Shown: positions 5,998-39,997, numbered from the stretch's first letter. The stretch: 64,000 nt of DNA from Candidatus Micrarchaeota archaeon (GCA_021852055.1 JAJZOD010000003.1:82846-146845); one strand, 5' to 3'. A program made the numbers and translations. Notes: generated by a model not told the origin, from the letters alone.

Positions 5998-6109
5998 GGG
6001 CTCGTAGCGCAGTGGCAGCGCGCCCGCTTTGCAAAACTTCTTGGAAAGAAGTTTTATCAAGAAGAACCAGAAAAGCGGAAGGTCGCGGGTTCGAATCCCG
6101 CCGAGTCCA
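5998..6109 (+). tRNA. tRNA-Ala(UGC) with a 40-nt intron at the canonical 37/38 position (intron 6034-6073). CCA is not encoded
   Basis: Manual cloverleaf. Acceptor GGGCTCG/CGAGTCC includes the G3:U70 Ala identity pair. D arm GCGC-AGTGGCA-GCGC. Anticodon arm CCCGC-TTTGCA[intron]A-GCGGA, with a C27-A43 mismatch. Variable loop AGGTC. T arm GCGGG-TTCGAAT-CCCGC. Discriminator A. Confidence 0.85.
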
Positions 6110-6142
6110 TAAAACTTCTTGGGAAGAAGTTTTATCAAGAAG
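6033..6142 (+). repeat. 32-nt hairpin-containing repeat, once inside the tRNA-Ala intron (6033-6064) and again immediately 3' of the tRNA (6111-6142)
   Basis: aaaacttcttggaaagaagttttatcaagaag versus aaaacttcttgggaagaagttttatcaagaag, with one substitution in the hairpin loop. The 10-bp stem is AAAACTTCTT/AAGAAGTTTT. Confidence 0.9.
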
Positions 6143-6176
6143 CTGAAGGAAATTTAAGTGACAAACGCGCAAGCGG

Positions 6177-6210
6177 GTCTGGGTGCGATTGCGGTTTCAA
6201 AGCCGAATCC
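6177..6210 (+). repeat. Left copy of a 34-bp perfect direct repeat (gtctgggtgcgattgcggtttcaaagccgaatcc)
   Basis: Identical to 10724-10757. The 3' part gccgaatcc resembles the tRNA-Ala T-loop/stem segment ttcgaatcc. Confidence 0.9.
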
Positions 6211-6309
6211 CATCCCCAATTTTTTACTGTGGTATTTGTTCTTTAGTAATGAACAATAGTGTTCATTGGTAATGAAAACATTTAAATATCTTAGGCTCTA
6301 AATGAAATC

Positions 6310-7530
6310 ATGATACTAAAAGAAACACTTAGACAGATAGTCAAAGCTCAGAGGAAAGACTTAGAATCGTTCAGCTACGGGGTAGAAAGGGAAGAGTTGA
6401 ATGAGATAAAACTCAATATGCATTACGCATTGATACTATCAGGTATAAGGCGATGTGGTAAGAGTACTCTACTTCACCAATTGCTTAAAAAGCTTCCAAA
6501 TTTCTATTATCTAAACTTTGAGGACACACGGCTAGATAGCTTTCAAGTTGAGGATTTCGAAAAGTTAGATGAAATCTTCAAGGAAGATTACGGTGAATCC
6601 GAATATTATCTTTTCGATGAAATACAGAATATTTATAAATGGGAGCTTTTTGTAAGATCCAGACTAGACAAACAGAAGAAATTTATTATTACAGGCTCTA
6701 ACGCTTCACTTTTAAGTAAGGAGCTTGGTACTAGACTCACGGGCAGACACATCAACATGGAACTGTTTCCATTCTCCTTTATGGAGTCGCTTTCTATGAC
6801 TAAGGTAAAGGCAAGCGCAACTTCATTCTCAGAATACTTAAGAAGCGGAGGGTTTCCAGAATATCTGAGATATAAAAAACAAGAAATACTGCGCGAGTTA
6901 TTAACAGACATAATACAAAGAGATATTATAGTAAGACACAAATTGCGCGATTCTAAAACAGTAAAGACACTTGCGTTATATCTGCTTAGTAACACGGGCA
7001 ACGAGTTTTCATATAATAACCTTAAGAAGATGTTCAATCTGGGATCAGTGAATACCGCAATAGCATTTGTTTCTTATTTTGAGGACAGCTACCTTCTATT
7101 TACTGTGCCAAAGTTTGATTACTCGCTTAAAAAACAGATAGTTAATGCCAAAAAAGTATATTCTATAGATAATGGTCTTTCTACCTCAAATTCAGCTTCG
7201 TTCTCTTCAGATTTAGGAAGGATGTTAGAAAATTCTGTATTCTTGCATCTTCGTAGGAAATATAAAGAAATATTCTACTTCAAAGGAAAAAGAGAATGCG
7301 ATTTCTTAGTAAAGGAGCAAAGCAAGATAAAAATGGCAATACAAGTCTCGTATGAGCTAAACGAAGGAAACAAACAGAGAGAATTTGACGGACTTCTTGA
7401 AGCTATAAAAAAGTTTGATTTGGCAGAAGGATTAATACTTACATTTGATCAAGAAGACAAATTCGAGATTGAGGGAAAACACATAATAGCAAAACCGGTT
7501 TGGAAATGGATGCTAGAAAGCAATTTGTAG
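6310..7530 (+). CDS. AAA-superfamily ATPase of the AAA_14/DUF4143 type
   Basis: Walker A motif SGIRRCGKST and Walker B-like motif YYLFDEIQ. Length (~400 aa) and a C-terminal region (ECDFLV) are typical of the archaeal DUF4143 ATPase family. Confidence 0.75.
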   Translation: MILKETLRQIVKAQRKDLESFSYGVEREELNEIKLNMHYALILSGIRRCGKSTLLHQLLKKLPNFYYLNFEDTRLDSFQVEDFEKLDEIFKEDYGESEYYLFDEIQNIYKWELFVRSRLDKQKKFIITGSNASLLSKELGTRLTGRHINMELFPFSFMESLSMTKVKASATSFSEYLRSGGFPEYLRYKKQEILRELLTDIIQRDIIVRHKLRDSKTVKTLALYLLSNTGNEFSYNNLKKMFNLGSVNTAIAFVSYFEDSYLLFTVPKFDYSLKKQIVNAKKVYSIDNGLSTSNSASFSSDLGRMLENSVFLHLRRKYKEIFYFKGKRECDFLVKEQSKIKMAIQVSYELNEGNKQREFDGLLEAIKKFDLAEGLILTFDQEDKFEIEGKHIIAKPVWKWMLESNL

Positions 7531-7791
7531 TGTATGAAAGTGAAAAAAGAGATTAAAATTGTTTTGCCTATAAGTCCGTGTTCAAAAGAAATATCTCCAA
7601 TTTGGATTTTACCGAGTACACAAACCTTTTTGGAAATGTTTGGCGAAAACACTGGGTGCGGTTACAGCTAGATTTACACCGTATCTGTTTATATTTCTAA
7701 ACGCGGTGTAATCTGTGTGCGAAGACACAGATGTTCGCATTTTCCGAAATATGATCTACGGTGTCTTGAATGGCTAGAAAAATAGACGACA

Positions 7792-7853
7792 GGGCTCGTG
7801 AGCGCGTTCCGTTCGCAACAGAAAGGTCGCGGGTGCGATCCCCGCCGAGTCCA
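7792..7853 (+). pseudogene. Decayed 62-nt copy of tRNA-Ala. Both acceptor strands and the T arm are kept, while the D and anticodon arms are deleted
   Basis: GGGCTCGTGAGCGC...TTCGCAACAGAAAGGTCGCGGGTGCGATCCCCGCCGAGTCCA aligns to both ends of the 5998-6109 gene and keeps the last bases of its intron (CAGAA). It is followed by a third copy of the trailer hairpin (7855-7876). Confidence 0.75.
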
Positions 7854-7878
7854 TAAAACTTCTTAAAAAGAAGTTTAT

Positions 7879-8511
7879 TCAATATGGATTACTTAGTTTG
7901 CCAGAATCTGCCAAAAGCTTATATTTTTTTACAAAATTAAGTACAGATTTGGAAGTGTGCTTATCATACACCTTTAGGTATTTGTGCACTTTTTTGATTT
8001 CTATGGACCGCAAAAGTCCATCATAGTTCTGAGGAGGTAACTTTACTTTGTAATAGAACAGGTCTATTAACGTCTTCTCTGGATCTGAAACTGGCAATTT
8101 TAACACACCGTAATTTATTATATCAAACCCAAAAAAGTATCTTGTTGGCATATGGTGCACAAATATAACATCTTTAGGATCGTCGAATATTGTCGTACGG
8201 TTTGAACGTATTTTTTTTATTGTGAGTATTTCTGGTCTAGAATTCTGTATCCAAAGATCCCTTAATGTTAGTGCAGATAGCAACCCATAATAAAAAGGTG
8301 TATACGCAAACCCCGATACCATATCATTCTTTTTAAATGTATATACGCTTTTTTTCAATGAATACAAATCACCATTACTTTTCATGTATGATAAGATTCT
8401 CGTAAGATTTGATGATTTTATCCTCTTATTGCTGAAGTATAGTCTAAGGTCTCTGTGTGTGAAAACTGGATAATCTGAAAAATGCCTGGTTATTTCATTA
8501 ACTATTGTCAT
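7879..8511 (-). CDS. abiEi: AbiEi-like antitoxin/transcriptional regulator (COG5340-type, N-terminal wHTH)
   Basis: The N-terminal pattern ...PVFTHRDLRLYF...LTRILSYMKSNGDLYSLKKSVYTF and the C-terminal pattern ...LPVSDPEKTLIDLFYY are typical of AbiEi. It overlaps the adjacent nucleotidyltransferase gene by 14 nt. Confidence 0.65.
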   Translation of the reverse strand: MTIVNEITRHFSDYPVFTHRDLRLYFSNKRIKSSNLTRILSYMKSNGDLYSLKKSVYTFKKNDMVSGFAYTPFYYGLLSALTLRDLWIQNSRPEILTIKKIRSNRTTIFDDPKDVIFVHHMPTRYFFGFDIINYGVLKLPVSDPEKTLIDLFYYKVKLPPQNYDGLLRSIEIKKVHKYLKVYDKHTSKSVLNFVKKYKLLADSGKLSNPY

Positions 8512-9187
8512 TTATCCACTCCTTAAGTCTGTTTATCATTAGTTCAAACGATGGCGGCAGACCTGTTATTATCAAGTGATCCAGACTTGAGATATCTGAA
8601 GGGGGATTATTTTCTATCTTGGCAACCAGATTCTTTATTTTTTTAACAGTTTTATGGTCAGCCTTTTTTATTAACGAAACCAAATACCACATGTCATATA
8701 AGTCATGGGCTTCTGGATGCTTGAAGCCATCCTCATCATTAAGCTTATCTTCATATGCTACTATTTTCTCCTCCAATAAATCTACTGGGCTAAGAGATAG
8801 TACCACAATTTTGCTTTCATCAATCTTTGAATAGTCAGCGTGTATGCCTTTCTTATACTTAAAATTTATATCGATCTTCATTTTTGTGCCAACTAATTCG
8901 ACAATAAAATGCATTGTGTCATTTGACCTGCTGTATCCTTTTTCCTTAATCACAAACCCATTTTCTTGCAGAAACTTAGAAACTGCTCGGTATTCTTGCA
9001 TCTTTTCCGAAACTGTTTTCACTTTCATATAAAAATCAAGATCCCTCGAAAATCTGTTCCCTGAATAGCAACGCCATATTGCTGTTCCACCATGAAACAC
9101 GAGATTCGTATATCTACTGTATAATATCTCAATTAGTATATCTTCAAGTTTTGCTTTTTCAACTTGTGCTGGGTCTCTTAAGTTCAT
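8498..9187 (-). CDS. abiEii: AbiEii/AbiGii-family nucleotidyltransferase toxin (type IV TA / abortive infection)
   Basis: Motif FHGGTAIWRCYSGNRFSRDLDFY matches the family signature GGTAL..Y...RFS.DLDF. Size is 229 aa. Confidence 0.75.
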   Translation of the reverse strand: MNLRDPAQVEKAKLEDILIEILYSRYTNLVFHGGTAIWRCYSGNRFSRDLDFYMKVKTVSEKMQEYRAVSKFLQENGFVIKEKGYSRSNDTMHFIVELVGTKMKIDINFKYKKGIHADYSKIDESKIVVLSLSPVDLLEEKIVAYEDKLNDEDGFKHPEAHDLYDMWYLVSLIKKADHKTVKKIKNLVAKIENNPPSDISSLDHLIITGLPPSFELMINRLKEWINDNS

Positions 9188-9208
9188 AATATCATTAACT
9201 ACACTTTA

Positions 9209-15270: not shown

Positions 15271-16332
15271 ATGGATATTGATGAGCGGATAGAGATAATA
15301 CGCTCCGAACCTACCGAGGAGATAGTTACTGACCAGGATCTGAGAACAGTGCTTGAAACAAAAGCGCATCCTAAACATTACATTGGCTTTGAGATAAGCG
15401 GCATGCTGCACATAGGCCATGTGCTTGTGGTCGGTAAGAAGATAAACGACCTTGAAAAGGCAGGTGTGCAGACCCAGATACTCATAGCAGACTGGCACAC
15501 TGTGGCGAACCAGAAGCTCGGCGGAGACTGGGAGCGCATTAAAAAAGCTGCCGAGTTTTACAAGAGAGTGTTCAGTTTTGTGTGCCCGAACTCAAAGATT
15601 ATACTCGGCTCTGATCTTTACCACAACAACAACGAGTACTGGAAGGATGTCATGAAAATTTCAGCAAAGACAACCATGGCCCGGGCCACGCGCACTCTCA
15701 TAATTCAGGGCCGGAGCGAGAAGGACACGCTTCATGTGTCGCAGTACATTTATCCTATGATGCAGGTTGCCGACATAAAGGCGCTCGATGTAGACATATC
15801 GCATGCTGGAATGGATCAGCGCAAGGTCCATATGCTTGCGCGCGAGGTGTTCGGAGAGCTGCATGACAAGCGGCCGCTTGCGCTGTTGCATACGCATCTG
15901 CTGCAGTCGCTTCTCGAGCCTCAGAAACTGAACGAGAGCGCGACAAAAGAGGAGATAGCAACTGCAATGAAGATGAGCAAATCAAAGCCAGGCTCCGGAA
16001 TAAACATCCTTGCAGGAAAGGAAGAGATCAAGCGCATAATCTCCGGAGGCTGGTGTCCTGAGGGTGTCACAGAAGGCAATCCGATACTGGGCCTGTGCAG
16101 GTATGTAATATTCCCCCACCTCAAGACAATGAAGATAGAGCGCAGCAGCAAATACGGCGGCGACATCGAATTTTCATCCTACAGGGACCTAGAAGAGTAC
16201 TTCGCCGGGAAGAAGCTGCATCCTGCTGATCTTAAAAGTGCTGTCGCATCGTCCATGATTAAGATTATCTCCCCAATATCTGACAGGTTCTCCGGAGAAA
16301 AAGAGGAGCTGGGGCGCCTTTTTGCTGTCTGA
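15271..16332 (+). CDS. tyrS: Tyrosyl-tRNA synthetase (class I)
   Basis: HIGH motif (LHIGH), KMSKS motif, and GMDQRKVHMLARE matching archaeal TyrRS GMEQRKIHMLARE. Confidence 0.8.
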   Translation: MDIDERIEIIRSEPTEEIVTDQDLRTVLETKAHPKHYIGFEISGMLHIGHVLVVGKKINDLEKAGVQTQILIADWHTVANQKLGGDWERIKKAAEFYKRVFSFVCPNSKIILGSDLYHNNNEYWKDVMKISAKTTMARATRTLIIQGRSEKDTLHVSQYIYPMMQVADIKALDVDISHAGMDQRKVHMLAREVFGELHDKRPLALLHTHLLQSLLEPQKLNESATKEEIATAMKMSKSKPGSGINILAGKEEIKRIISGGWCPEGVTEGNPILGLCRYVIFPHLKTMKIERSSKYGGDIEFSSYRDLEEYFAGKKLHPADLKSAVASSMIKIISPISDRFSGEKEELGRLFAV

Positions 16333-16384
16333 TGCCTCGCATTTATTTTAGCAGTCATCTGCTTCTCGCAGTGCAAATTACATT

Positions 16385-16585
16385 AATGTGCAAGCCTGGC
16401 AGCATATCCAAAAGCCAAGTGCAGGCAGGAAAAGGCACGCCGGGATTGGGACTTTCACAACCTTTAGTTTTAATCAAACTTTCCCTAAAAGCCTGTTTTG
16501 AACCCAAAAGGCCCGAAGGCCACCAGATCTCGAGTTTCGCCGCGCACACTGGCGCGATACCTGGTTCTGCCATCCCGGCTCAAGA
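16385..16585 (-). ncRNA. Candidate structured non-coding RNA of unknown class. Strand is tentative
   Basis: The gap between tyrS and the next gene is 311 nt with no credible ORF. Minus-strand structures are a GGCC-UUCG-GGCC hairpin (16510-16521), a CGCGC/GCGCG hairpin (16541-16556), a 7-bp helix ACCAGGU/AUCUGGU (16559-16565 with 16522-16528) and a long-range 8-bp helix GCCGGGAU/AUCCCGGC (16572-16579 with 16439-16446). Confidence 0.3.
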
Positions 16586-16643
16586 ATAATTGGCAAACAA
16601 ACCTTATTAATCTTGTCTTGGCGTATCTTTAGACTGTGCGGAT

Positions 16644-18092
16644 ATGAAGAAAAACGTAAGCAGGACAAATAGGACAAATGCCTTAGATGCTATAATAATC
16701 ATCATTCTGCTGATACTTCCTATAATGACTTTCTATGCCATACTTAGCATACAAGGGCCCTCATGGGATATTACTGCAAGATACCTGAATGGGAAGACGC
16801 TGCTTAATTTTATAGCCGGCGGAGCACACAAAGGAAATGCATTTGCTGGCGAGTACTCAAACAATCTTGCTTATTATTTCGAGCCTTACCGTGAACCGCT
16901 GAGCACGCCTATATTTGCGGTTATTGATGCAGTCTCTTCGGATTCTATCCTTGTTTATATAATCCTGATTTTTGTGGCTTATGCTGCAGTTGTGTGGAGG
17001 CTCGGAAAGGAGCTCAATATAGACACAGTAACCATCCTTGCAGCCATGACTGGACCATACGCTGTATTTTTCTTTTTTGTGCCGAACGGTGGCGAGGGGC
17101 TCGCAGTCATATTCGTGATTCTTGGTATCATATACCTCCTCAAAAAGAATCCAGTATCCGGCCTGTTCTTCGGCATCGCAGTGCTCGGAAAGTATCCTGC
17201 ACTAATACTTCTGCCTATACTTATTTTGCTGTGGAATAAGAAGAAGTTTGCCATAGCAGCCATCCTTGCTGCTGCTCCTATCGTGGCATGGGGTGTTATA
17301 GACTGGGGGCTCTATGGCGTGCCATTCTACAGTTATCTTGCATCAATATCCTATGCAAATGTTGCCTCTGCGCCATCTTATATAAGCTGGTCAGCAGTCA
17401 TCGGTGTTATTGCCTACCCTGTTGTGTTCGCATGCATTGGCATTGCCGCAATTTTTGCCTGCAGAAAGCGCATAAGCCTGTTCTTCAATTATAAAAGCTA
17501 TATAAATTACAAAGCAAAGGTATTTGCCGTATTAGTTGTGCTTTCGCTGCTGGGTTATGCTGCAATACTTCCGCATAATAATGCATTCACGCAGGCGAGG
17601 TATGGTTTCCTGCTGGCAGCAGCGCTCATGGCTTCCTCTGCAGTTATAATGGGGCGGGCCGTCCTCACAGTTTACAAGGTCAAATACGCTGCAGCAGCAT
17701 TTGCCATTGCAGTACTTTTGGGTTATCTCGTGTATTCGTCATTTATTCTCAATACAGCCCAGCTTAAATATTATAATCCAGGAAACAAAGCAAGCATATA
17801 TGCTTATTCTGAAAACGTACTCAGCAGTTTCGGCTTCAATAATTGCAGGGTAGTCTCAAATGCATGGATACCAATGCTGTATTCGGGTTACGATGCATAC
17901 TCCCCATACATATTTTATGGTGATATGGAGCAAGAGCACTACCCTGTTGTAGTATTCAACTACACTGGAGTGTCAATGGGCAGCACCAGGTACCTGCCGC
18001 TTCTAAAAAACGACACTAAAGCGTATTCCGGAGCCAACTTTACGATTTATCTACCAAAAGAGGCATCATGCTACAACTACACCGAACAATAA
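16644..18092 (+). CDS. Polytopic membrane protein, possible GT-C-type glycosyltransferase
   Basis: More than 10 predicted TM helices followed by a C-terminal soluble tail. It lies adjacent to a processive GT2. Assignment rests on architecture only. Confidence 0.4.
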   Translation: MKKNVSRTNRTNALDAIIIIILLILPIMTFYAILSIQGPSWDITARYLNGKTLLNFIAGGAHKGNAFAGEYSNNLAYYFEPYREPLSTPIFAVIDAVSSDSILVYIILIFVAYAAVVWRLGKELNIDTVTILAAMTGPYAVFFFFVPNGGEGLAVIFVILGIIYLLKKNPVSGLFFGIAVLGKYPALILLPILILLWNKKKFAIAAILAAAPIVAWGVIDWGLYGVPFYSYLASISYANVASAPSYISWSAVIGVIAYPVVFACIGIAAIFACRKRISLFFNYKSYINYKAKVFAVLVVLSLLGYAAILPHNNAFTQARYGFLLAAALMASSAVIMGRAVLTVYKVKYAAAAFAIAVLLGYLVYSSFILNTAQLKYYNPGNKASIYAYSENVLSSFGFNNCRVVSNAWIPMLYSGYDAYSPYIFYGDMEQEHYPVVVFNYTGVSMGSTRYLPLLKNDTKAYSGANFTIYLPKEASCYNYTEQ

Positions 18093-18188
18093 AAACAGCC
18101 AAATTTTACGGCTGCATAACACACAGCTGCACAGGATTTACGCTGCAGCATCCGCATTCCTTCTGCAGGCAATGCCAATATATTTATA

Positions 18189-19823
18189 TTGTTGGATAAT
18201 AAGATTTATCTGAAGCCGATACTGGCTAAAATTAAGCCTACTGATACCATGAAGAACATAAACGCTGACTACATAACACGCCTGTTTTCAGTTGTGCTAT
18301 TCGCATTCCTTACAATATTCGGGGCATTTTTCTTTGTATATCTTGTTATATACGCGCACAGCCTTTACAGCTACCTGCTCGCATTCTCATATCTTATTTT
18401 AATGCTGATATCCGGCTTCTTCAACATATTCACTGCATATGCATATTACCGCTCTTACTTCTATTACAAGTATCTTGACGGTATAAAGAGAAAAATTTCA
18501 TATTCTGCAGATAAAAAAAGCGTGCAAAACAAACCAAGCGTTGCAATAGTAATGTCAACTTTCAATGAAGACACCTCAGTAGTTAAAAGAAACCTCCAAC
18601 GTCTTCTTAAATTAAATTACCCTAAGGAAAAGCTGGCCTTTTATCTGCTTGATGATTCTACCGAGCCTACAATAATAACAGAGATGCGCAGTTTCTGCGG
18701 GAAGTTAGGCATAAAATACATACACCGGCAAAAAAGGCGCGCATACAAGGCCGGCGCGCTGAATAATATGCTCAAGTACTCAAAAGAAGACCTGATAGCC
18801 TACTTCGATTATGATGAGTATCTTGTAAACTTGAACTTTGTGCAGGATCTCGTGCCATATTTTGCAGACAAAAAGCTTACCTACATACAGACGGAGAAAA
18901 GCTACGCAAAGGGCAACTTCTTCTCAGACACAGTCGCACTTATAGACGGCTTCTTTTTCAAGTTCGTCCAGCCGGCAAGGGCTCTTGATAATACGGCAAT
19001 ATTTGCAGGTTCGTGCGGTATTATACGCAGGAAGCATCTGGTCGCAATGAAAGGATTTCCCGAATACATAACAGAAGACTCCTTCTTCAGTTTTGAGACT
19101 GATATGAACGGCTACAAAAGCCTTTATCTACCAAAGGTATACGCATTGGGCAAGCCAATAACAACATTTACTGAACTGGTCAGGCAGCAGTGGAGGTATA
19201 ATTACGGCGGAACCCAGTTTATAAGTTACTTTGCCGAAAGGCTGCGCCACAGAAACAAAGAGCGAAAGGTCTCAAGGCTTTCGATAGTGGATTACGCAAT
19301 GCACGGCTTCGGCTTAAACTATATATCGGTCATAGCAATAATATTTACTATCTTCTCCATACTGGTAACATTTTCACAGCTTCCTATAGTGAGTGTCAGC
19401 ATAAGCCAGCTGTTTCAGCCAAGCCTCATAAACCTTGATTTGGAGATATTCGGCATGGGTGTACTGTTTGCGTCTGTGTTAATGCCGATGATGCTCACAA
19501 AGATATACTTCGGTTCGTTCAAAAAAGGCATAATGTTCTTCTTCCTAACGTTTGCCCTGGTATTCGTACGGGCCAAGGCAGCCGCTGCAGCCGTATTCAA
19601 GACAAGCAGGAAGATAGTATGGGATAAAGATTCAATTAACGGAAACTACGGAAAGTTTGTATATGCATTTAGAAACTCATTGGCTGAATCGTCTTTCTCC
19701 CTCATATTAATGCTTCTGGGCGCTATGGCCATGGTAATAGGCAACCTGTTCGGCGGCTTCTGGCTTCTGTGGTATGCTGCCCTATACCTGATGACACCGT
19801 TAATGTTCTATAAATACGGCTGA
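18189..19823 (+). CDS. Membrane-embedded processive family-2 glycosyltransferase (cellulose/chitin-synthase-like)
   Basis: VAIVMSTFNE, DDST, an FDYDEY acidic motif, the QxxRW signature (RQQWRY) and flanking TM helices. The 18189 start is TTG and the first ATG is at 18249. Confidence 0.75.
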   Translation: MLDNKIYLKPILAKIKPTDTMKNINADYITRLFSVVLFAFLTIFGAFFFVYLVIYAHSLYSYLLAFSYLILMLISGFFNIFTAYAYYRSYFYYKYLDGIKRKISYSADKKSVQNKPSVAIVMSTFNEDTSVVKRNLQRLLKLNYPKEKLAFYLLDDSTEPTIITEMRSFCGKLGIKYIHRQKRRAYKAGALNNMLKYSKEDLIAYFDYDEYLVNLNFVQDLVPYFADKKLTYIQTEKSYAKGNFFSDTVALIDGFFFKFVQPARALDNTAIFAGSCGIIRRKHLVAMKGFPEYITEDSFFSFETDMNGYKSLYLPKVYALGKPITTFTELVRQQWRYNYGGTQFISYFAERLRHRNKERKVSRLSIVDYAMHGFGLNYISVIAIIFTIFSILVTFSQLPIVSVSISQLFQPSLINLDLEIFGMGVLFASVLMPMMLTKIYFGSFKKGIMFFFLTFALVFVRAKAAAAAVFKTSRKIVWDKDSINGNYGKFVYAFRNSLAESSFSLILMLLGAMAMVIGNLFGGFWLLWYAALYLMTPLMFYKYG

Positions 19824-25296: not shown

Positions 25297-26307
25297 CTAA
25301 GCTTTTTTGATGTCGCTTTCAACCATCAGCTTCACAAGCTCCTCAAATGTGGTTTTAGGCTTCCATCCCAGCAGCCGTTTTGCCTTGCTGTAATCAGCGA
25401 GCATATTGTCGGCTTCAAGAGGCCTGAAGAACTTGCTGCTCACGCTTACTACCTCCCTGCCGTTGTAAAATCCCTTTTCGTTCATGTCATTGCCTTTCCA
25501 TTCTATGTTCATGCCGGCAACTTCAAAAGCGCCTTCAACAAAGTCCCTTACTGTATGCAGCACGCCTGTTCCAAGTACAAAATCATCTGGCTCCTTCTGC
25601 TGCATCATCAGCCACATGCCTTCAACATAATCCTTTGCATATCCCCAGTCTTTTCTTGCATTCATGTTGCCAAGTTCGAGTACCTCCCTGCTGCCATTAT
25701 GCATCCTTGCAGCTGCAAGGCTTATCTTTCTTGTGACGAATTCCGGCCCGCGCACCTCGCTCTCATGGTTGAAAAGTATTCCATTAGCTCCAAAGATTCC
25801 GTAAGCCTCGCGGTAATTCTTAGTAAGCCAGTAACCTGCAAGCTTGCTTATGGCGTAAGGGCTCCTTGGGTGAAATGGCGTGCTCTCATCCTGCGGGACC
25901 TTCTCTGCAGTGCCATAAAGTTCGCTTGTCCCAGCAAAATAAAACCTGCTTTTAGGAGAAACCTCCTTTACAGCATTTACTATGTTCAGCGTACCTATTA
26001 TGTTGGTTTCAAGCGTAGCCTGCGGATTATGGAAGCTGTAGCCTACGAAGCTCTGCGCTGCGAGGTGGTATATCTCATCCGGTTCAGTGGCCTTGATGAC
26101 GTTGTTTATGAACTGTGCATCCGTCACATCACCGTGCTCCAGCTTTATCCTCTGGACAGTCTCGCGCGGCAGCATTTCAAGAGTTCCGAGCCGCATGTCC
26201 CTGTTCCTTCTGACTATGCCTGTAACGTCATAGCCCTTATCAAGCAGAAACTGCGCCATGAAGTATCCGTCCTGGCCTGTTATCCCTGTAACTAAAGCTT
26301 TTTTCAT
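25297..26307 (-). CDS. gmd: GDP-mannose 4,6-dehydratase
   Basis: MKKALVTGITGQDGYFMAQFLLDKGYDVTGIVRR...SELYG...YAISK...NHESE.RG. Confidence 0.9.
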   Translation of the reverse strand: MKKALVTGITGQDGYFMAQFLLDKGYDVTGIVRRNRDMRLGTLEMLPRETVQRIKLEHGDVTDAQFINNVIKATEPDEIYHLAAQSFVGYSFHNPQATLETNIIGTLNIVNAVKEVSPKSRFYFAGTSELYGTAEKVPQDESTPFHPRSPYAISKLAGYWLTKNYREAYGIFGANGILFNHESEVRGPEFVTRKISLAAARMHNGSREVLELGNMNARKDWGYAKDYVEGMWLMMQQKEPDDFVLGTGVLHTVRDFVEGAFEVAGMNIEWKGNDMNEKGFYNGREVVSVSSKFFRPLEADNMLADYSKAKRLLGWKPKTTFEELVKLMVESDIKKA

Positions 26308-26497
26308 GATATCCCTTAAATTATTGTATATAATTCCTAATATATAAGTTTTAGGATATGTATTCTATTAACATCCATAATTATTATAATTTGCGTGGAT
26401 GCGTGATAAGGCGTGCTACGGGCGCTGCCCTTGGGATAAGAGCGTAATTACCTATTTTTGTATGTGTCGCCTCATTTTAGGTTCAGCGGCAATACAT

Positions 26498-27616
26498 CTA
26501 TCGAAGAAGTTTTTTGTAGAATCTTCCAACATCCTGAATATAAAATGCCTCAAGGTTCTCCTTGTTTCTTATATACCTGCCTTTATCCCTGCTTCTTATT
26601 ATCTCAAGCGCTTTCTTTGCCATATCCTTTTCAGGCACAACTACGCACATGCTCTTCGCCTCATCGGATATCGGCGAGCCTTCCGGAATGAGAACCGGTG
26701 TGCCGACTGCAAGACTCTCAAGCGTTATTATGCTTAGCCCTTCTCTCTCAGACATATGCAACAGCAGCGAGGATCCTGCAAGTTTGTCGTAAAGCCTTGC
26801 CTTGTCTTTGTAAAACCCAGCAACACTAACATTCCTCTCCAGTGAAAGGCCTCTTATGTCGCGTTCTATGCTTTTCTTCTCAACGCCATCGCCTATTATC
26901 AGGCCTTTTACGCTGCTGTCCATTTTGATTATATCAGACATTATCCTGAGCCATTTGTCAATCCTCTTCTCCTTGATGAATCTGCCGGAGAAAATTACCA
27001 CTTTTTCACGTGCAGTGCCCCCTGCATGTTTTGCCTCAAGCTCTTTTCTGTCTAATATCGGTGCAAACACCAATATGCTACCTGCAGGTATGCCTCTTTC
27101 TTTCAAGGTATCCGCTATCCTTCCAAAATCTGCTATGTACCTGGCGGAATTTGATTTTATAAGAATATCCGAGTACCATCCTGCAATGCGCCCAAGTACC
27201 GGCCCGAGATAATCAACCCAATACCTTCTATCCCATACCTCGTCAAATCTTACCACCAGCTTGCATCTTCTGGCAAGCCTGTAGGTTCGTATGCCCAGCA
27301 GGTGCAGCACAGGAAACTCGTCTGTTATTATTGCATCGAACTTATACCTGAAAATGTTCATCGCATACAACGAAAACACAACCGCTTCACGTACCGAGCG
27401 CCTGCCGTGCCTGTATACATTTGTTTCACTTGCATCTCCATACGCGTGATATCTTACCCCGTTGTGCACGAACTCGCTCTGCATTCCAGGCCATTTAAGC
27501 GTGAAGAAGTGCACTTCATGCTCCTTTGCGAGCTCCTCTGCCTCGATGGCCATTATGTGTTCTATGCCTCCTTTATGCCATGGATACGGCACATCGTAGA
27601 CGAATGCTATTTTCAT
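26498..27616 (-). CDS. Glycosyltransferase, GT4 (group 1) family
   Basis: GT-B architecture with the C-terminal EGLSIITLESLAVGTPVL E-x7-E-type motif. Confidence 0.75.
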   Translation of the reverse strand: MKIAFVYDVPYPWHKGGIEHIMAIEAEELAKEHEVHFFTLKWPGMQSEFVHNGVRYHAYGDASETNVYRHGRRSVREAVVFSLYAMNIFRYKFDAIITDEFPVLHLLGIRTYRLARRCKLVVRFDEVWDRRYWVDYLGPVLGRIAGWYSDILIKSNSARYIADFGRIADTLKERGIPAGSILVFAPILDRKELEAKHAGGTAREKVVIFSGRFIKEKRIDKWLRIMSDIIKMDSSVKGLIIGDGVEKKSIERDIRGLSLERNVSVAGFYKDKARLYDKLAGSSLLLHMSEREGLSIITLESLAVGTPVLIPEGSPISDEAKSMCVVVPEKDMAKKALEIIRSRDKGRYIRNKENLEAFYIQDVGRFYKKLLR

Positions 27617-27690
27617 TAATTATCCCCTTCAAGCCCTAACCATCAATTCCCTGTTTTTTGACTTTCCATGTTCCACTTTTAGAAATAACC

Positions 27691-27724
27691 ACATACTTTG
27701 ATCTATAACATACTTTGATCTATA
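27691..27724. repeat. Perfect tandem duplication, 2 x 17 bp (acatactttgatctata), upstream of the GT4 gene
   Basis: Read directly: 27691-27707 equals 27708-27724. Confidence 0.9.
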
Positions 27725-27739
27725 TGCATATTTAACTAG

Positions 27740-28273
27740 TCACTTATGGCCTATCCTCTCTAAGACGAAATCCACGCGCTTCGATACCGGTAGCTTGGGT
27801 ATGGATACAACATTATACCCTGATTCTATATACGCCTCTTTCATAAACTCGGAAAGCCTGGAAGCTACGCTGAAAGGCTCCTTCCTCTCGGAATCAGTTG
27901 CATAAATCTCCTTCCATGGTTCTGTAAAGAATACTTCCTTACTGAAGCGGTACTTGCTTATGGCTTCAGATATGCCCTCAAGCACAGGCACTCCGGAGTG
28001 TTTCAGGTAGCCAATATTATCCACGAAGCTCCTGTCAAGGAACCATGTCCCGTCCTTTGCTGCAAGGTACTGTTTGACCTGCCTGTCCAAAAGCAGTTTG
28101 TTGAATGCCAAAATATCGCGCCATGGCAGAGCAGGGCTGTCAATCTCTATAAGCTCCTTTATGAGCAAACGGCTCTCTTCAGGCAGGCACCTGAATCCGC
28201 GCCTCTCAAGTTCTGTTATTATTGAAGTTTTGCCGCCTCCTGGCGCTCCTGTTATTACAAAAACATTTTTCAT
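27740..28273 (-). CDS. P-loop ATPase / nucleotide-kinase-like protein (AAA_28-type)
   Basis: MKNVFVITGAPGGGKTS is a Walker A motif at the N-terminus. Size is 177 aa. Confidence 0.6.
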   Translation of the reverse strand: MKNVFVITGAPGGGKTSIITELERRGFRCLPEESRLLIKELIEIDSPALPWRDILAFNKLLLDRQVKQYLAAKDGTWFLDRSFVDNIGYLKHSGVPVLEGISEAISKYRFSKEVFFTEPWKEIYATDSERKEPFSVASRLSEFMKEAYIESGYNVVSIPKLPVSKRVDFVLERIGHK

Positions 28274-28280
28274 CGCATCC

Positions 28281-29537
28281 TCATGTGCCTGTTTTCCAGC
28301 TTGACAGATACTCTATCTGCTCTTCTGTAAGCTTGTCTATAGAGATTCCCATAGCTTCAAGTTGCAGCCTAGAGATGTCATCATCAATGCTTTCCGGAAG
28401 GAGCACAACTTCTGCACCTAGTTTGCCCTTGTTTTTAACAAGGTATTCGCATGCAAGCGCCTGCCCTGCAAAGCTTGTTGCCATGACTTCGCTTGGATGC
28501 CCTTCTGCAGCTGCAAGGTTCACCAATCTGCCTTCCCCACACACATAGATCTTCCTGTCACCGAGTCCGTATTCATGGAAGTTTGGGCGTATCTGCCTTT
28601 TGCTGAAGTCTTTCAGCGATGCCATGTCTATTTCAACATCAAAATGTCCCGAATTTGCAAGTATTGCGCCGTCTTTCATCTTTTTCATATGCTCAAGGCG
28701 TATAACATTCTTGTCTCCTGTGACTGTCACGAATATGTCTCCCAGGCCTGCCGCGTCATCCATCTTCATCACCCTGAACCCGTCAAGTGCCGCCTGGAGC
28801 GCCTTGAAGTTGTCTACCTCTGTAACTATGACGTTCGCGCCCATGCCTTTGGCCCGCAGTGACACTCCCTTGCCGCAGCTCCCGTAACCTGCTACCACAA
28901 AGGTTTTGCCTGATATGAGGGTTGCGCTTGCGCGGATCAGGCCGTCGAGCGTTGACTGCCCTGTGCCATAATAATTATCAAGGAGATGTTTTGTCTTGTT
29001 GTCGTTTACTGCAATCACTGGATACTTCAGTGCATCTGCCTTCTTCATTGAATGAAGCCTTATTATCCCTGTGGTAGTTTCTTCGCATCCGCCTATTATC
29101 GAGCTTATCTGGCTAGGATACTTCTCATGAATCCTTGTTACTAGGTCGCAGCCGTCGTCTATTGTAATTGTTGGTTTTTCCGATATGACTTTATCCAAAT
29201 ATCTGTAATAATCCTCTACACTCTCCCCCCTGTAACCGTAGACCTTGACTCCTTCCTCGGCCAGGGCCGCAGCCACGTCATCCTGCGTTGAGAGCGGGTT
29301 GCAGCTTGCTATTGCCACATCCGCTCCTCCAGCGCGCAGAGCCTTTACGAGCACCGCAGTTTCCTTTGTAAGGTGGAGCGCCATGCCTACTGTCATGCCT
29401 TTGAACGGCCTCTCCTTCGAAAATCTATCCCTGATCTTGGTCACTATCTCCATGCGTTTTTCAGCGAGCTCTATGTTGAGCCTGCCCTGTTCTGCCAGCT
29501 TAAGGTCTTTTACTTCGTATGTGCTGCCTTTGTCCAT
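28281..29537 (-). CDS. ahcY: Adenosylhomocysteinase
   Basis: 418 aa, with VAGYGSCGKG NAD-binding loop, DDGCDL and HFDVEID motifs. Confidence 0.9.
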   Translation of the reverse strand: MDKGSTYEVKDLKLAEQGRLNIELAEKRMEIVTKIRDRFSKERPFKGMTVGMALHLTKETAVLVKALRAGGADVAIASCNPLSTQDDVAAALAEEGVKVYGYRGESVEDYYRYLDKVISEKPTITIDDGCDLVTRIHEKYPSQISSIIGGCEETTTGIIRLHSMKKADALKYPVIAVNDNKTKHLLDNYYGTGQSTLDGLIRASATLISGKTFVVAGYGSCGKGVSLRAKGMGANVIVTEVDNFKALQAALDGFRVMKMDDAAGLGDIFVTVTGDKNVIRLEHMKKMKDGAILANSGHFDVEIDMASLKDFSKRQIRPNFHEYGLGDRKIYVCGEGRLVNLAAAEGHPSEVMATSFAGQALACEYLVKNKGKLGAEVVLLPESIDDDISRLQLEAMGISIDKLTEEQIEYLSSWKTGT

Positions 29538-29589
29538 ATAATCACATAAATATATACATTTTATAAGGTATCAAATCAATGTCTGTCGA

Positions 29590-30312
29590 TTATGTTTTCC
29601 TAAGTTTTGCATAATACTCGGACGCTTTTAGCAACGAATCAAAGCTTCCAACATCAGACCAGAAGCCCTCTACCATGACAACTCTCAAAAGTCCATCATT
29701 CATATACTCTTTGTTCACGTCAGTGAGTTCTAGTTCACCTCTTGGGCTTTCCTTAAGCTGCCTTATGCGCTTAAAAACGTCGTTGGGGTAAATGTATAAT
29801 CCCGTAAGAACAAATTTTGATTTTGGATTCTCTGGCTTCTCTTCAATACTTATGACTTTATCATCCTTATCAAGCTCAACGACGCCAAACAACGATGGAT
29901 TATCGCTTTCTTTTACAAATATATACGCATACTTATCGGTGAAAGCTCCCCCTGGAATCTCTGCGGAGCTAAATACATTATCGGCAAGTATCACAACTAC
30001 TTTCTCTTTTCCAAAGAATTCTTCTGTCTGCAACAGTGCATGGGCAGTACCGCGGGGTTTGTTTTGCACCCTATACGTTAATGTAAGTTCCGGTCTCGCG
30101 TATACCTCGAGAAATCTTATAAAATCCTCAAGATGATCCTCACCTGTGACTATACAGACATTATCCACGCCGGATTTCTTGAGCGTATCCAACGGATATG
30201 TCACCATTGGTCTATCAAATACAGGAAGCAAACTCTTGTTAGTTACATATGTAAGCGGTCGTAGCCGTTTGCCCTCGCCTCCGGCAAGTATGGTACCCCT
30301 TCTGTTTGCCAA
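29590..30312 (-). CDS. Sugar-1-phosphate nucleotidylyltransferase (short form, RmlA/GlmU-N-like)
   Basis: ILAGGEGKRLRPLT signature. Confidence 0.8.
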   Translation of the reverse strand: MANRRGTILAGGEGKRLRPLTYVTNKSLLPVFDRPMVTYPLDTLKKSGVDNVCIVTGEDHLEDFIRFLEVYARPELTLTYRVQNKPRGTAHALLQTEEFFGKEKVVVILADNVFSSAEIPGGAFTDKYAYIFVKESDNPSLFGVVELDKDDKVISIEEKPENPKSKFVLTGLYIYPNDVFKRIRQLKESPRGELELTDVNKEYMNDGLLRVVMVEGFWSDVGSFDSLLKASEYYAKLRKT

Positions 30313-30392
30313 AAAACTACCTAATATATTATTACAGGCAAGATATTAAAGTGCTTTGCATGAATAAATAATCTGTCAAAATTTGTGATGTA

Positions 30393-31436
30393 ATGCAGAA
30401 ACTCTCTGTGCTCATAATGACTCGGAATAATACCAAGACAGCTATAAATCTAATTGAAGATCTGAAAGACATTGCAGACGAGTTTGTAATTATAGAAAGC
30501 AGTGAAGGAAAAGATAAAAATCTAATAAAGAAATATTCCTTAAAAAACAGAAAAGTCAGTATATACGATTCAGTAGCCCTTGGATATCAAGATCCATTGC
30601 GCATGTATGGTCTTAGCAAATGCGAAAACGAATGGGTTCTTCATCTGGATGTTGACGAGAGACTTTCATCTAGCCTAAAAACGGGACTTAAAAGTATGAT
30701 AAACACTCAAAAAGTGAGTGCATTCTCATTCAGAAGATACGAACACGTAGAAAACAATAACCATCGCAGGACTTCATTCTTCACTTGGCAGGTGCGTTTG
30801 TTTAAAAAGAGCAAGATAGTTTTCCATGGATTAATACACGAAGCCCCAATTATAAACGGCCATATCTATTATATAAAAGACAAAGAAAAATATGTCGAAC
30901 ATGTAGAAGAGTTCAAGGTATCCGGCCCGAGAGAGTATTCAATAATGCACAAGCTGGATAGATTATCCTATGCGGCATATAATGATGCCATGTTGGAATA
31001 CTTGGCAAAATTTACAAAAACTGACAAGAAGAAAATCAAAAAAACATTTGCAGGTAGAGTACTTATATCCCTAATTCTACTATATGAGCGGATAACCTTA
31101 AAGAAATATGACAAAGAGATAAGTAATTTTGACTATTTTTTTTATAATCTATTCAAGAGCGTAGGATACGCTATTATGATGAAAAGCCCTATGGCATTTA
31201 TAAGATCTTTCGAAAATGCAACATACGAGTCCCGGCGCATAAAAGAATGGAGGCGCGAGCCCGATGCCAAAGAACTATTTGAGTTATCTAAAATTATACG
31301 AAAAATCGGGATAATAAAGTTTCTAAATCTAGATAAGGAGGAAACTGTAAAAATAATATACAACAAATACAAAGGCAAAAAACAGGGGATATCCTTATTA
31401 CTTCATCTCCTTATTGAACAATATAAAAAACAATAA
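30393..31436 (+). CDS. Glycosyltransferase family 2 with a helical C-terminal extension
   Basis: LSVLIMTRNN... and an LDVDERL (DxD-like) motif. Confidence 0.65.
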   Translation: MQKLSVLIMTRNNTKTAINLIEDLKDIADEFVIIESSEGKDKNLIKKYSLKNRKVSIYDSVALGYQDPLRMYGLSKCENEWVLHLDVDERLSSSLKTGLKSMINTQKVSAFSFRRYEHVENNNHRRTSFFTWQVRLFKKSKIVFHGLIHEAPIINGHIYYIKDKEKYVEHVEEFKVSGPREYSIMHKLDRLSYAAYNDAMLEYLAKFTKTDKKKIKKTFAGRVLISLILLYERITLKKYDKEISNFDYFFYNLFKSVGYAIMMKSPMAFIRSFENATYESRRIKEWRREPDAKELFELSKIIRKIGIIKFLNLDKEETVKIIYNKYKGKKQGISLLLHLLIEQYKKQ

Positions 31437-31452
31437 AACAAACTTAGTAAAA

Positions 31453-32424
31453 TCAATTCAAAGAATGCAATGTCATTTCAGACCCCTTTTTTCTATATAT
31501 ATTATAGCCTTCAAAAATAGCCCGAAAGGTGACGCTAACTCTCCACAAGATTCTATCTTTGAGTCTAAGGCTTGATAATTTTCTTTGCCGGGTACTGCTC
31601 TCTATTGAGAAAATTGCGCTGAATAATATTATAAGTAGCGCCTCAAATCTCTTTACAAAACCAAAATTCTTGAAGATAAAATAAACCCAGTTTTTCTGGT
31701 TATTCTCAAAAAACCTGTCTCGTGCGCTCTTCTTCGGAGAATTGACATGCGTATAACCCTCCAAATGTGTCAGACTTACTCTGCCATCATACATTACTGA
31801 AAAACCGCTCTTCCTTGCTCTCACACAATAATCCGTATCCTCAAATCCAAATTTTAAATTTTCATCAAACAATCCAATTTTGTTTATGAGTTCCTTTTTC
31901 AATAAACACATAGCTGCAGTAGACGCCTCCACTTCTTCAATTTTATTATACTGACCTTTATCGATTTCACCCCTACCCCTGCTTCTGGGAGCAATGCCTA
32001 TTATCCCTCCTGCTTGTTGTATCCTACCTGTCGGATAACGCAGTTTGCACGTAAGTATTCCACAATGCTTATGACTTTCTGCTGTAACTACAAGTTCTCT
32101 CAACCAGTTCTTATTTTCAGCAAAAACGTCATTGCTAAAAAGAACCACGTAATCTGGGTTGTATTTGTGTATAGCATAAAAAATGCCCTTGTTGTTGACG
32201 TACGAAAAGTTATATACATTATTCTCTAACCGTAATAAATCACATTTTGCAGATTTTATGACTCGGAGTGAATCATCAGTAGAGCCATTGTCAACAACTA
32301 TAATTTTAAGATTGTTGTAATTTGTCTGTAGCAATCTTTTAAGGCTCTCCTGCAATATCCCTTTTCCGTTGAATTTCCTTTCCATGCCGTTATAGTTCAG
32401 CAAGATTATGGCGACTCTCTTCAT
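31453..32424 (-). CDS. Glycosyltransferase family 2
   Basis: VAIILLNYNG...VVDNGSTDDS...FGFEDTDYC. Confidence 0.8.
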   Translation of the reverse strand: MKRVAIILLNYNGMERKFNGKGILQESLKRLLQTNYNNLKIIVVDNGSTDDSLRVIKSAKCDLLRLENNVYNFSYVNNKGIFYAIHKYNPDYVVLFSNDVFAENKNWLRELVVTAESHKHCGILTCKLRYPTGRIQQAGGIIGIAPRSRGRGEIDKGQYNKIEEVEASTAAMCLLKKELINKIGLFDENLKFGFEDTDYCVRARKSGFSVMYDGRVSLTHLEGYTHVNSPKKSARDRFFENNQKNWVYFIFKNFGFVKRFEALLIILFSAIFSIESSTRQRKLSSLRLKDRILWRVSVTFRAIFEGYNIYRKKGSEMTLHSLN

Positions 32425-32495
32425 TATATCGTTACTGATTCTTCGCTAACATTTAAATATTTGGTAAGTCATCTATAAGTAAGTACGGTATAATT

Positions 32496-33752: not shown

Positions 33753-33762
33753 TTGATACTTT

Positions 33763-34731: not shown

Positions 34732-34733
34732 AA

Positions 34734-35450
34734 CTAAATCTGCATCCACGTCTGTGGTATTTTTTCAGCCTCCTTCACGTCCTTCGGTGTGTTAATGCTT
34801 ATCCATTCCTCATCTCCTGAAATCATTTTGCCTTTTATCTTTCCGCTATTTATCAATTCAGCAAATGTTGTATTCTCTATGGATCCGCTGCTTGGTATAA
34901 AATCTATTATTTTCTTATCGAATATGTAAACGCCTATGCTTATCGGTATGGCATTAAGTTTCTTTCCATACTCAAAGCTTGTTACTGTATTTGAAGAATC
35001 GAATTTGACTACGCTGAATCTACATGGGAACGGTGACAAAGCCATGGTGACTATCGGCTTATATTTAAAATATAGTGCTTTCATATTCTCAAGATTAAGG
35101 TTTGTTAGTTCATCTCCATTCATTGCAACAAACGCATCATCTTTCACAAACCGTTTTATTGCAAGTCCAAAAGCCTCAGCGGTACCTCCCTCTATAGTAT
35201 GTTCGCTTATGTCGACTTCTAATCCGAAGTTGTCGTTCTCCTTCATATACTCGTAAATTTTTTCTTTTTTGTATGACACCCCCAAGACCAAATGCGTTAT
35301 ACCATATTTCTTGAGCCATCTAATTATCCAATAAAGGAGTGGTTTTCCACTGACTTCTACGAGTGTTTTCGGCATGTCTTTTGTGAGCGGGGCAAGTCTG
35401 GATCCTTCACCACCAACTATTACGACTGCTGTTCTTATCTCAAAAATCAT
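34734..35450 (-). CDS. Sugar-phosphate nucleotidylyltransferase
   Basis: VVIVGGEGSRLAPLTKDMPKTLVEV. Confidence 0.8.
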   Translation of the reverse strand: MIFEIRTAVVIVGGEGSRLAPLTKDMPKTLVEVSGKPLLYWIIRWLKKYGITHLVLGVSYKKEKIYEYMKENDNFGLEVDISEHTIEGGTAEAFGLAIKRFVKDDAFVAMNGDELTNLNLENMKALYFKYKPIVTMALSPFPCRFSVVKFDSSNTVTSFEYGKKLNAIPISIGVYIFDKKIIDFIPSSGSIENTTFAELINSGKIKGKMISGDEEWISINTPKDVKEAEKIPQTWMQI

Positions 35451-38778: not shown

Positions 38779-38811
38779 AGCAATATATACATTGCTTATG
38801 TCAGTGGTTAA

Positions 38812-39993: not shown

Positions 39994-39997
39994 GCGT

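Follow-up and report, generated by a model that had tools for sequence, protein, structure and literature searches.

The question raised by this locus is what occupies the gap of 311 nt (16333-16643) between tyrS and an open reading frame of 482 amino acids in the 64-kb stretch of DNA analysed here (the window). The source of the window is an uncultured archaeon of the Micrarchaeota (DPANN), and the best relatives of its TyrS are all found in Micrarchaeota MAGs. The two genes that border the gap are as follows.

15271-16332, plus strand, TyrS (PF00579, E 5.5e-33)
16644-18092, plus strand, 482-aa ORF without a Pfam match, regarded as a membrane-protein gene in the initial annotation

The initial annotation, made from the sequence of the window, described the gap as GC-rich, devoid of a plausible ORF and packed with helices, and proposed that it encodes a non-coding RNA which might be a reduced or divergent version of a universal RNA, or something new. 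The composition is indeed unusual, with a GC content of 0.505 in 16400-16599 compared to 0.31-0.375 in the spacer before tyrS. Two mechanical ORFs, of 85 aa on the plus strand and 72 aa on the minus strand, cross the gap; these are judged to be non-coding because homologous copies differ in length by numbers that are not divisible by three, in agreement with the view that no plausible ORF is present. When the whole gap is folded, neither strand is better than shuffled sequence (z about -1). A core of 145 nt (16438-16582), on the other hand, folds on the minus strand with -54.3 kcal/mol (z -2.81, none of 200 shuffles being as good); the z-score of its plus strand is -2.36. The presence of a UUCG tetraloop and of G-U pairs, together with the lower fold energy, indicates the minus strand. 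The feature itself was found to occupy 16438-16579, and the part of the originally proposed interval from 16385 to 16437 falls outside it. A scan of the locus for sigma-70 promoters and intrinsic terminators was uninformative for an archaeon. Searches with Rfam, carried out on the whole window and, with relaxed filters (E <= 10), on the gap, returned no credible family at the locus, where the only two matches had E above 1 and are attributed to chance.

The identity of the core becomes apparent from comparison with other Micrarchaeota. The tyrS-flanking DNA of 80 genomes was searched with the gap sequence. In seven Micrarchaeota genomes, 16438-16595 is matched with 79-89% DNA identity, although their TyrS proteins are only 61-79% identical, and weaker matches are found in three more genomes (L002, L003 and L005). 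The copies in these last three are plain cloverleafs that lack both inserts described below and contain a single canonical intron at 37/38; they are recognised by the Rfam tRNA model RF00005 with 46.4-46.8 bits, compared to a gathering score of 29. In its ends, D arm and CUCGAGA anticodon loop the window copy is identical to these, but extra sequence is present in the anticodon stem and in the T-loop. A tRNA-Ser(CGA) gene is thus found near tyrS in ten related Micrarchaeota genomes. The distance is not constant, and the element is a unit of its own rather than an appendage of tyrS, because it lies 0.7-1.7 kb away from that gene in L004, L009 and L011.

Based on this comparison and on the evidence presented below, the minus strand of 16438-16579 is interpreted as a functional class II tRNA-Ser(CGA) gene with two introns, a reading to which we assign a probability of about 0.94. 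The proposal of a non-coding RNA gene on the minus strand is thereby borne out, in the form of a tRNA gene, by conservation, covariation and strand signals. The predicted features of the gene and its surroundings, with the evidence or position for each, are listed here.

16438-16579, minus strand, tRNA-Ser(CGA) gene, 142 nt (ARAGORN on the spliced product, threading, orthologues, covariation)
16549-16579, minus strand, exon 1 (invariant or nearly so in 8 genomes)
16536-16548, minus strand, intron 1, 13 nt, UGUGCGCGGCGAA, between tRNA positions 30 and 31 in the anticodon stem
16497-16535, minus strand, exon 2 (ARAGORN on the spliced product, comparison of copies, covariation)
16452-16496, minus strand, intron 2, 45 nt (ACAGGC...GUGAAAG), between T-loop positions 59 and 60
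16438-16451, minus strand, exon 3 (compensatory changes in the T stem and at acceptor pair 7:66)
16604-16611, minus strand, TATA-like A/T box ATTAATAA, candidate promoter, centred about 28 nt upstream of the mature 5' end
16430-16433, minus strand, T-run UUUU, candidate archaeal termination signal, 5-8 nt past the discriminator

The three exons (31, 39 and 14 nt) would together form a mature tRNA of 84 nt, for which CCA is not encoded. Exon 1 contains the 5' strand of the acceptor stem (GCCGGGA), U8, G9, the D arm (GCAG-AACCAGGUA-UCGC), G26 and nucleotides 27-30 (CCAG). Exon 2 starts with A31 and continues through the anticodon loop CUCGAGA, with the anticodon CGA at 16530-16532, the stem strand UCUGG, a U, the variable arm, UU, the T stem strand UUGGG and nucleotides 54-59 (UUCAAA). 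U60, the 3' strands of the T stem (CCCAA) and acceptor stem (UCCCGGC) and the discriminator G73 are contributed by exon 3. Splicing out intron 1 restores a perfect CCAGA/UCUGG anticodon stem. In the window copy 24 of the 25 cloverleaf pairs form, the acceptor stem having 7 bp, and the universal bases U8, A14, G18 G19, U33, G53, U54 U55 C56, A58 and C61 are all present (11/11). The D stem of this copy is weak, with two Watson-Crick pairs, one G-U pair and one A.C mismatch. A long variable arm, a serine anticodon and discriminator G73 are identity features of serine tRNAs, and the product was assigned to the class II serine tRNAs because it has a long variable arm, the anticodon CGA and G73.

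Some of the helices noted in the initial annotation find their place in this cloverleaf. The GGCC stem capped by UUCG on the minus strand (GGCC-UUCG-GGCC, 16510-16521) is the serine variable arm. The long-range pairing of 8 bp, GCCGGGAT/ATCCCGGC (GCCGGGAU/AUCCCGGC), is located at 16439-16446 and 16572-16579 with 125 nt between its arms, and corresponds to the acceptor stem plus one adjacent pair. The remaining two helices can likewise be drawn on the sequence, but are not conserved and do not represent functional pairings. One of these, the CGCGC/GCGCG hairpin, is absent from homologs and competes with a conserved CGCC/GGCG helix at intron 1. The other, a helix of 7 bp that surrounds this hairpin (ACCAGGU/AUCUGGU), would pair the D-loop with the 3' strand of the anticodon stem, and is mismatched without compensation in L004, L009 and L011.

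The A/T box upstream of the gene is a near-palindrome that also lies about 35 nt upstream of the divergent membrane-protein ORF. Comparable A/T boxes are present at about -28 in L001 (TTTTTAAA) and L009 (ATTAATAT). The A/T box, as a putative promoter, and the T-run are consistent with archaeal transcription of the gene.

The gene is not visible to standard tools in its genomic form. With unspliced genomic sequence, Rfam RF00005 gave no match at the gathering threshold nor at E <= 10, and ARAGORN did not detect the tRNA-Ser(CGA) gene in the window and 10 loci, either with or without intron mode. Removal of one insert alone was not sufficient to obtain an ARAGORN call. The covariance models miss the gene because they were built for one insert in the anticodon loop, and the two inserts found here sit outside that loop. 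The spliced 84-mer, by comparison, is identified by ARAGORN as tRNA-Ser(cga) over [1,84], the anticodon being placed at linear position 35 because the D-loop has one extra base. The same splicing rule yields tRNA-Ser(cga) in 11/11 homologous loci. No ARAGORN call was obtained from any of 1000 shuffles, or from the plus strand when treated likewise.

ARAGORN tolerates a 13-nt deletion almost anywhere, and a 45-nt deletion within about 6 nt. Since it is permissive about where the 13-nt deletion is placed, it does not on its own fix the junction of intron 1, and exhaustive threading in 8 genomes was therefore used to place the junctions. For each genome, all two-deletion products of suitable length, which number 54,000-106,000 distinct sequences, were threaded onto a fixed cloverleaf and the 11 universal bases, for a maximum score of 36. 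The predicted product scores 34-35 and is unbeaten in 8/8 genomes; the score of the window product is 35, made up of 24 pairs and 11 bases. CCAGA-CUCGAGA-UCUGG is the sole anticodon arm that occurs among the top threading solutions in all 8 genomes. The uninterrupted orthologues in L002, L003 and L005 also fix the position of intron 1, the predicted junction of which thus rests on comparison and threading.

The two-intron arrangement is found in a group of eight genomes (the window, L001, L004, L006, L009, L011, L016 and L018). In their exons, the members of this group differ at 6 or fewer of 84 positions. The introns differ in sequence and also in length, intron 1 ranging from 11 to 15 nt and intron 2 from 14 to 45 nt; in L004 intron 2 measures only 14 nt, and in L009, L016 and L018 its sequence is different. 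The discriminator is G73 in 11/11 copies, and the CUCGAGA loop is invariant. Covariation was analysed in an alignment of 7 distinct spliced sequences, with partners slid by 1-3 columns and 500 shuffles as controls. Standard pairs are formed in 95.4% of the alignment cells, compared to 27-52% for slid partners, and the covariation score exceeds that of 500/500 shuffles. Compensatory double changes occur at 7 pairs, namely acceptor pair 7:66 and two pairs each in the anticodon stem, the variable arm and the T stem. The variable arm, for example, occurs in the compensatory forms GGCC/GGCC, GGCC/GGCU and UUCC/GGAA. Only 2 Watson-Crick pairs of the D stem are invariant across the alignment. Both conservation and covariation in the relatives are therefore strong, and support the tRNA cloverleaf.

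The predicted junctions coincide with motifs of the kind used in archaeal tRNA splicing. In the window copy, intron 2 displays a strict 3-4-3 bulge-helix-bulge (hBHBh'), in the order T stem, 3' bulge AG^U, UUCA/UGAA helix, 5' bulge AA^A and intron-intron helix. The central helix is formed by U54-A57 (UUCA) with UGAA of the intron, and the bulge on the 5' strand is A58 A59 ^ A. This helix is fully paired in 5/8 copies, including that of the window, with one mismatch in L001 and two in both L016 and L018. Intron 1 has the relaxed hBH or bulge-helix-loop form instead of the strict bulge-helix-bulge. Here, CGCC of the exon pairs with GGCG of the intron, the 5' cut (AG^U) would fall in the loop, and the 3' cut reads AA^A. 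The CGCC/GGCG helix and the GGCGAA 3' end are invariant (8/8 copies) and the 5' cut reads AG^N, whereas the remainder of the intron varies in sequence and length, giving a loop of 4-8 nt. The lower helix of intron 1 is poor and, should UCG pair with CGA, the 3' cut would be placed in a bulge of about 5 nt. For both introns, the junctions demanded by the tRNA product lie two bases past the 4-bp helix on each strand; this agreement of the cut register between the introns was not built into the prediction.

Of the other explanations for the locus, the one that survives best is decay, in which case the sequence would be a tRNA-Ser pseudogene that contains insertions and is no longer processed or used. 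We consider this improbable. The failure of standard detectors and the A.C mismatch in the D stem are what might be expected from a decaying gene, and the window does contain one clearly aberrant tRNA-like sequence (7792-7853). However, weak D stems comparable to that of the window copy are documented in functional tRNAs of ARMAN-2 (PMC3239211), and across 8 genomes, with TyrS proteins of 61-79% identity, the exons have hardly changed, whereas the inserts change freely and the stems change by compensatory pairs. Moreover, the helices of the splice motifs (CGCC/GGCG in 8/8 copies, UUCA/UGAA-type fully paired in 5/8) and the cut register have been kept, as has the upstream A/T box, and the 11/11 universal bases are intact.

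It is even less probable that the locus encodes a novel structured RNA, or a reduced or permuted RNase P RNA, acting as an unspliced molecule of ~145 nt with GAAAGUCC words as its functional core. This idea could draw on the folding of the core, which is better than that of shuffles, on the fact that no Rfam family claims the locus, and on a P4-like pairing that GAAAGUCC could, on reading the sequence, form with upstream CAGGCUUUU. The initial annotation had drawn attention to two words on the minus strand that recall the CR-I motif of RNase P. Both words, GUGAAAGUCCC and AGGGAAAGUUU, are present as described, but they are unconserved, and searches for RNase P and SRP, including SRP helix 8, gave no model match even at E <= 10. 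The first word spans an intron-exon junction: its first 7 nt close intron 2, and U60 and CCC of the T stem complete it. The second belongs to the variable interior of intron 2 and does not occur in the other seven copies. Amongst the 8 copies, the GAAAGUCC-type ending is kept in the window, L001 and L009 only; L011, L006, L004, L018 and L016 read GGAAAUCC, GAAAAUCC or GGACAAUCC in its place. The resemblance to RNase P is coincidental, because the words lie in the unconserved intron 2 or at its 3' junction. Likeness to archaeal RNase P RNA (types A, M and T) is confined to a word of 7-8 nt (GAAAGUCC versus CR-I/P4), for which the only GGCUU-like partner sits 5' of the word and within the same intron, the wrong order for P4; the locus does not belong to that family or function like it. 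In L004, the intron that holds the words has shrunk to 14 nt. Conservation at the locus coincides exactly with the tRNA exons, neither the CGCGC/GCGCG hairpin nor the 7-bp helix is conserved or shows compensation, and orthologues without the inserts are plain tRNAs. The expectation of a reduced or divergent universal RNA, or of something new, was thus correct in that a universal RNA is disguised here, but this RNA is tRNA and nothing about it is new.

Very little can also be said for a cis-regulatory element on the plus strand, whether a structure in the 3' UTR of tyrS or a leader or riboswitch of the membrane-protein gene. The locus is suitably positioned between two plus-strand genes, and its plus strand does fold better than shuffles, but the fold is 10 kcal/mol weaker than that of the minus strand, which is the only strand to have the conserved G-U pairs and the UUCG loop. 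In addition, the separation from tyrS by 0.7-1.7 kb in L004, L009 and L011 argues against such an element, and the tRNA accounts fully for the sequence.

Equally implausible is a different splicing of the same precursor, in which UGUGCGC would be kept as the anticodon loop and CGAAACUCGAGAU removed, resulting in a product that resembles tRNA-Arg(GCG). Although this product threads as well as tRNA-Ser(CGA) in the window and in L001, it can arise only where the intron reads UGUGCGC, and the top solutions of L011, L009, L004, L018 and L016 do not include it. By contrast, ACUCGAGAUCUGG is invariant in 8/8 copies, the uninterrupted orthologues have the CUCGAGA loop, and the long variable arm and G73 are features of serine tRNAs. 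A C/D-box guide RNA inside intron 2 was also considered and rejected, as inspection of the sequence revealed neither a C nor a D box, and the intron is unconserved.

A pathway for expression of the tRNA-Ser(CGA) gene can be proposed, in which the starting point is what the compared sequences display (the gene, its exon/intron boundaries, the splice-site motifs, and their conservation and covariation), and in which transcription, the enzyme, ligation and charging are inferred. The precursor would be transcribed from the A/T box about 28 nt upstream. Each exon-intron junction could then fold into a motif of the bulge-helix-bulge type, as the geometry of the sequence allows, and a broad-specificity tRNA splicing endonuclease, as expected for this lineage, would cut two bases into each bulge. 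The three exons would be joined by an RNA ligase, after which the 84-nt tRNA would gain CCA and be charged with serine by way of its long variable arm and G73. Neither a splicing endonuclease (tRNA_int_endo) nor an RtcB ligase domain was detected by Pfam among the 30 window ORFs that were scanned.

Disrupted tRNA genes are well documented in the same phylum. In Ca. Micrarchaeum acidiphilum ARMAN-2, 56% of the tRNA genes are disrupted, and both 59/60 introns and two-intron genes occur (Fujishima et al. 2011, NAR 39:9695, PMC3239211). For example, pre-tRNA-Cys(GCA) has a 13-nt hBH/BHL intron at 59/60, and pre-tRNA-Pro(GGG) has two T-loop introns at 53/54 and 59/60; in vitro, the epsilon2 endonuclease of this organism cleaves a strict BHB substrate as well as a BHL intron of 13 nt (PMC3239211). 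Substrates of these two classes, strict BHB and BHL, are also used in a 2025 structural study (PMC12397907). The window gene resembles those of ARMAN-2 in its insertion at 59/60, in having two introns, in its weak D stem, and in being missed by ordinary finders. It also combines one strict hBHBh' motif with one relaxed hBH/BHL motif of 13 nt. It differs in that it is a Ser CGA gene interrupted at 30/31 together with 59/60, in a different uncultured genome, and in that cleavage has been shown in vitro for ARMAN-2 substrates and is predicted for the window gene.

Positions 30/31 and 59/60 are both among the known intron positions of archaeal tRNAs (Yoshihisa 2014, PMC4090602), and tRNAs with multiple introns have been described in Thermoproteales and other Crenarchaeota (Sugahara et al. 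2008, Marck and Grosjean 2003; reviewed in PMC4090602 and PMC4033280). The crenarchaeal genes are similar in that they have non-canonical introns at 30/31 and 59/60, up to three introns per gene, and BHB, HBh' and hBH motifs, and in their reliance on a broad-specificity endonuclease. Their enzyme, however, is a heterotetramer, (alpha-beta)2, whereas the epsilon2 type is described in Micrarchaeota, a DPANN lineage. The canonical intron at 37/38 follows the same splicing chemistry and BHB logic, and in L002, L003 and L005 it is found in the same gene at the same locus. It is absent from the window gene, in which the anticodon stem and the T-loop are interrupted instead. A canonical 37/38 intron is present elsewhere in the window, in tRNA-Ala(UGC) at 5998-6109. 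In summary, mechanism, positions and lineage are all precedented, and what is specific here is this gene in this genome, where standard annotation does not report it.

A covariance model was built from the spliced tRNA and used to search the window and related loci. A second hidden gene, independent of the first and built alike, was identified in this manner and speaks for the reading of the first as an interrupted tRNA gene.

51368-51496, minus strand, second hidden gene, best read as tRNA-Ser(GGA) (58.9 bits with the spliced-tRNA model)

This gene, which lies just upstream of an S13-S4-S11 ribosomal protein cluster, is of class II and has G73. Its anticodon loop reads CUGGA.., and it is interrupted by 33 nt at 59/60 and by 11 nt at or adjacent to 37/38. 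Between the two serine genes of the window, the 59/60 introns have end sequences in common, which hints at common descent or transposition. A 59/60 intron is also found in a tRNA-Leu(CAA) gene that lies downstream of tyrS in L020 and L022.

The distribution of introns at the tyrS-linked locus raises the question of their history. In a quick neighbour-joining tree of TyrS, which was made without support values, L002, L003 and L005 are placed as sister to L006 and are nested in the eight-genome two-intron clade. Upstream sequence is shared between L006 and these three genomes, and an A/T-rich putative promoter sequence is common to L006 and L003. We tentatively suggest turnover of introns in place at one orthologous locus, an idea with rather less than even odds. 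If this is true, one lineage has lost two non-canonical introns and carries a canonical one, along with about 14 mostly compensatory changes in the exons, and the locus would offer a datable case for gain, loss or movement of archaeal tRNA introns. Such turnover could have occurred by recombination with a copy of the spliced tRNA or by gene conversion from a different gene.

The locus does not reveal a new class of RNA or a new mechanism, and its use is mostly practical, in the correction of annotation. Both the Ser(CGA) and the Ser(GGA) gene are missed by Rfam/Infernal at the curated threshold and by ARAGORN, including ARAGORN with the intron option. Serine tRNAs will therefore be listed as missing when this genome and its relatives are annotated automatically, and such reports feed mistaken ideas of reduced translation machinery or incomplete genomes in DPANN archaea. 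For the study of splicing, the two-intron group supplies eight natural variants of a strict BHB plus relaxed BHL substrate for an endonuclease of the epsilon2 type. The picture of heavily disrupted tRNA genes obtained for ARMAN-2 is thereby extended to at least ten further uncultured Micrarchaeota.

A second class II tRNA gene in the window was detected with the tRNA-Ser model built from the spliced Ser(CGA) tRNA, and was called neither by Rfam at its gathering threshold nor by ARAGORN.

51368-51496, minus strand: class II tRNA gene, tRNA-Ser model, 58.9 bits

Because it is class II and has the acceptor stem GCCAGGG/CCCUGGC, G73, and an anticodon loop CUGGA.., from its sequence this gene reads best as tRNA-Ser(GGA). 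Two introns are predicted in it, one of 33 nt at 59/60 and one of 11 nt at or beside 37/38. At its ends, the T-loop intron resembles intron 2 of the Ser(CGA) gene. The tRNA gene itself is located immediately upstream of an S13-S4-S11 cluster.

Intron-bearing tRNAs, or matches of this kind, are also found in tyrS-flanking loci from other genomes.

L020 4264-4361, plus strand: tRNA-Leu(CAA), A73, long variable arm
L022 4213-4312, plus strand: tRNA-Leu(CAA), A73, long variable arm
L015 1-134, minus strand: tRNA-like match with a 63-nt insert near the anticodon
L046 1658-1797, minus strand: 140-nt tRNA-like match with a large insert, 29 bits

Both tRNA-Leu(CAA) genes are located directly 3' of tyrS and have a T-loop intron of 13-16 nt at about 59/60; in these two Micrarchaeota, the tyrS-adjacent slot is occupied by a tRNA other than Ser(CGA). 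The L015 and L046 matches are probably additional intron-bearing tRNAs.

Elsewhere in the window, a tRNA gene and a tRNA-like sequence flank an ATPase gene.

5998-6109, plus strand: tRNA, canonical-position intron of ~40 nt
6310-7530: AAA_14/DUF4143 ATPase
7792-7853, plus strand: 62-nt tRNA-like sequence, Rfam 32 bits
8498-9187: AbiEii toxin homologue

The first was labelled Cys(gca) by ARAGORN in intron mode, but tRNA-Ala(UGC) is the better fit to its G3:U70, its variable loop of 5 nt, and its UUUGCAA loop. The tRNA-like sequence lacks a D arm; its T-loop (UGCGAUC) is aberrant, its anticodon loop resembles that of Ala(CGC), and its acceptor stem and 3' flank (ATAAAACTTCTT) are identical to those of the tRNA at 5998-6109. 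Together with 6110-9190 it may represent either an integrated element in which a tRNA end has been duplicated or a tRNA pseudogene.

Close to the Ser(CGA) gene, a near-palindromic A/T box (TTATTAAT, 16604-16611) is positioned ~28 nt 5' of the minus-strand tRNA and ~35 nt 5' of the plus-strand ORF starting at 16644, and could constitute a single divergent promoter region common to both. Genes for sugar modification and glycosyltransferases form a long cluster at 25297-41299, with GDP-mannose dehydratase, several GT4 enzymes, UDP-GlcNAc 2-epimerase, a DegT aminotransferase, and a C-methyltransferase; additional GT2 and unannotated membrane ORFs occupy 16644-19823.

Three orthologous tRNA-Ser(CGA) genes in other tyrS-flanking loci contain the canonical 37/38 intron only, and were compared with L006 4064-4203.

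L002 4089-4211, minus strand: tRNA-Ser(CGA)
L003 4103-4225, minus strand: tRNA-Ser(CGA)
L005 4102-4224, minus strand: tRNA-Ser(CGA)

Since these three sit within the clade bearing the 30/31 and 59/60 introns in a quick TyrS NJ tree, and have upstream sequence in common with L006, the comparison suggests that two introns have been lost, and a different one is present, at the same tRNA-Ser(CGA) locus.
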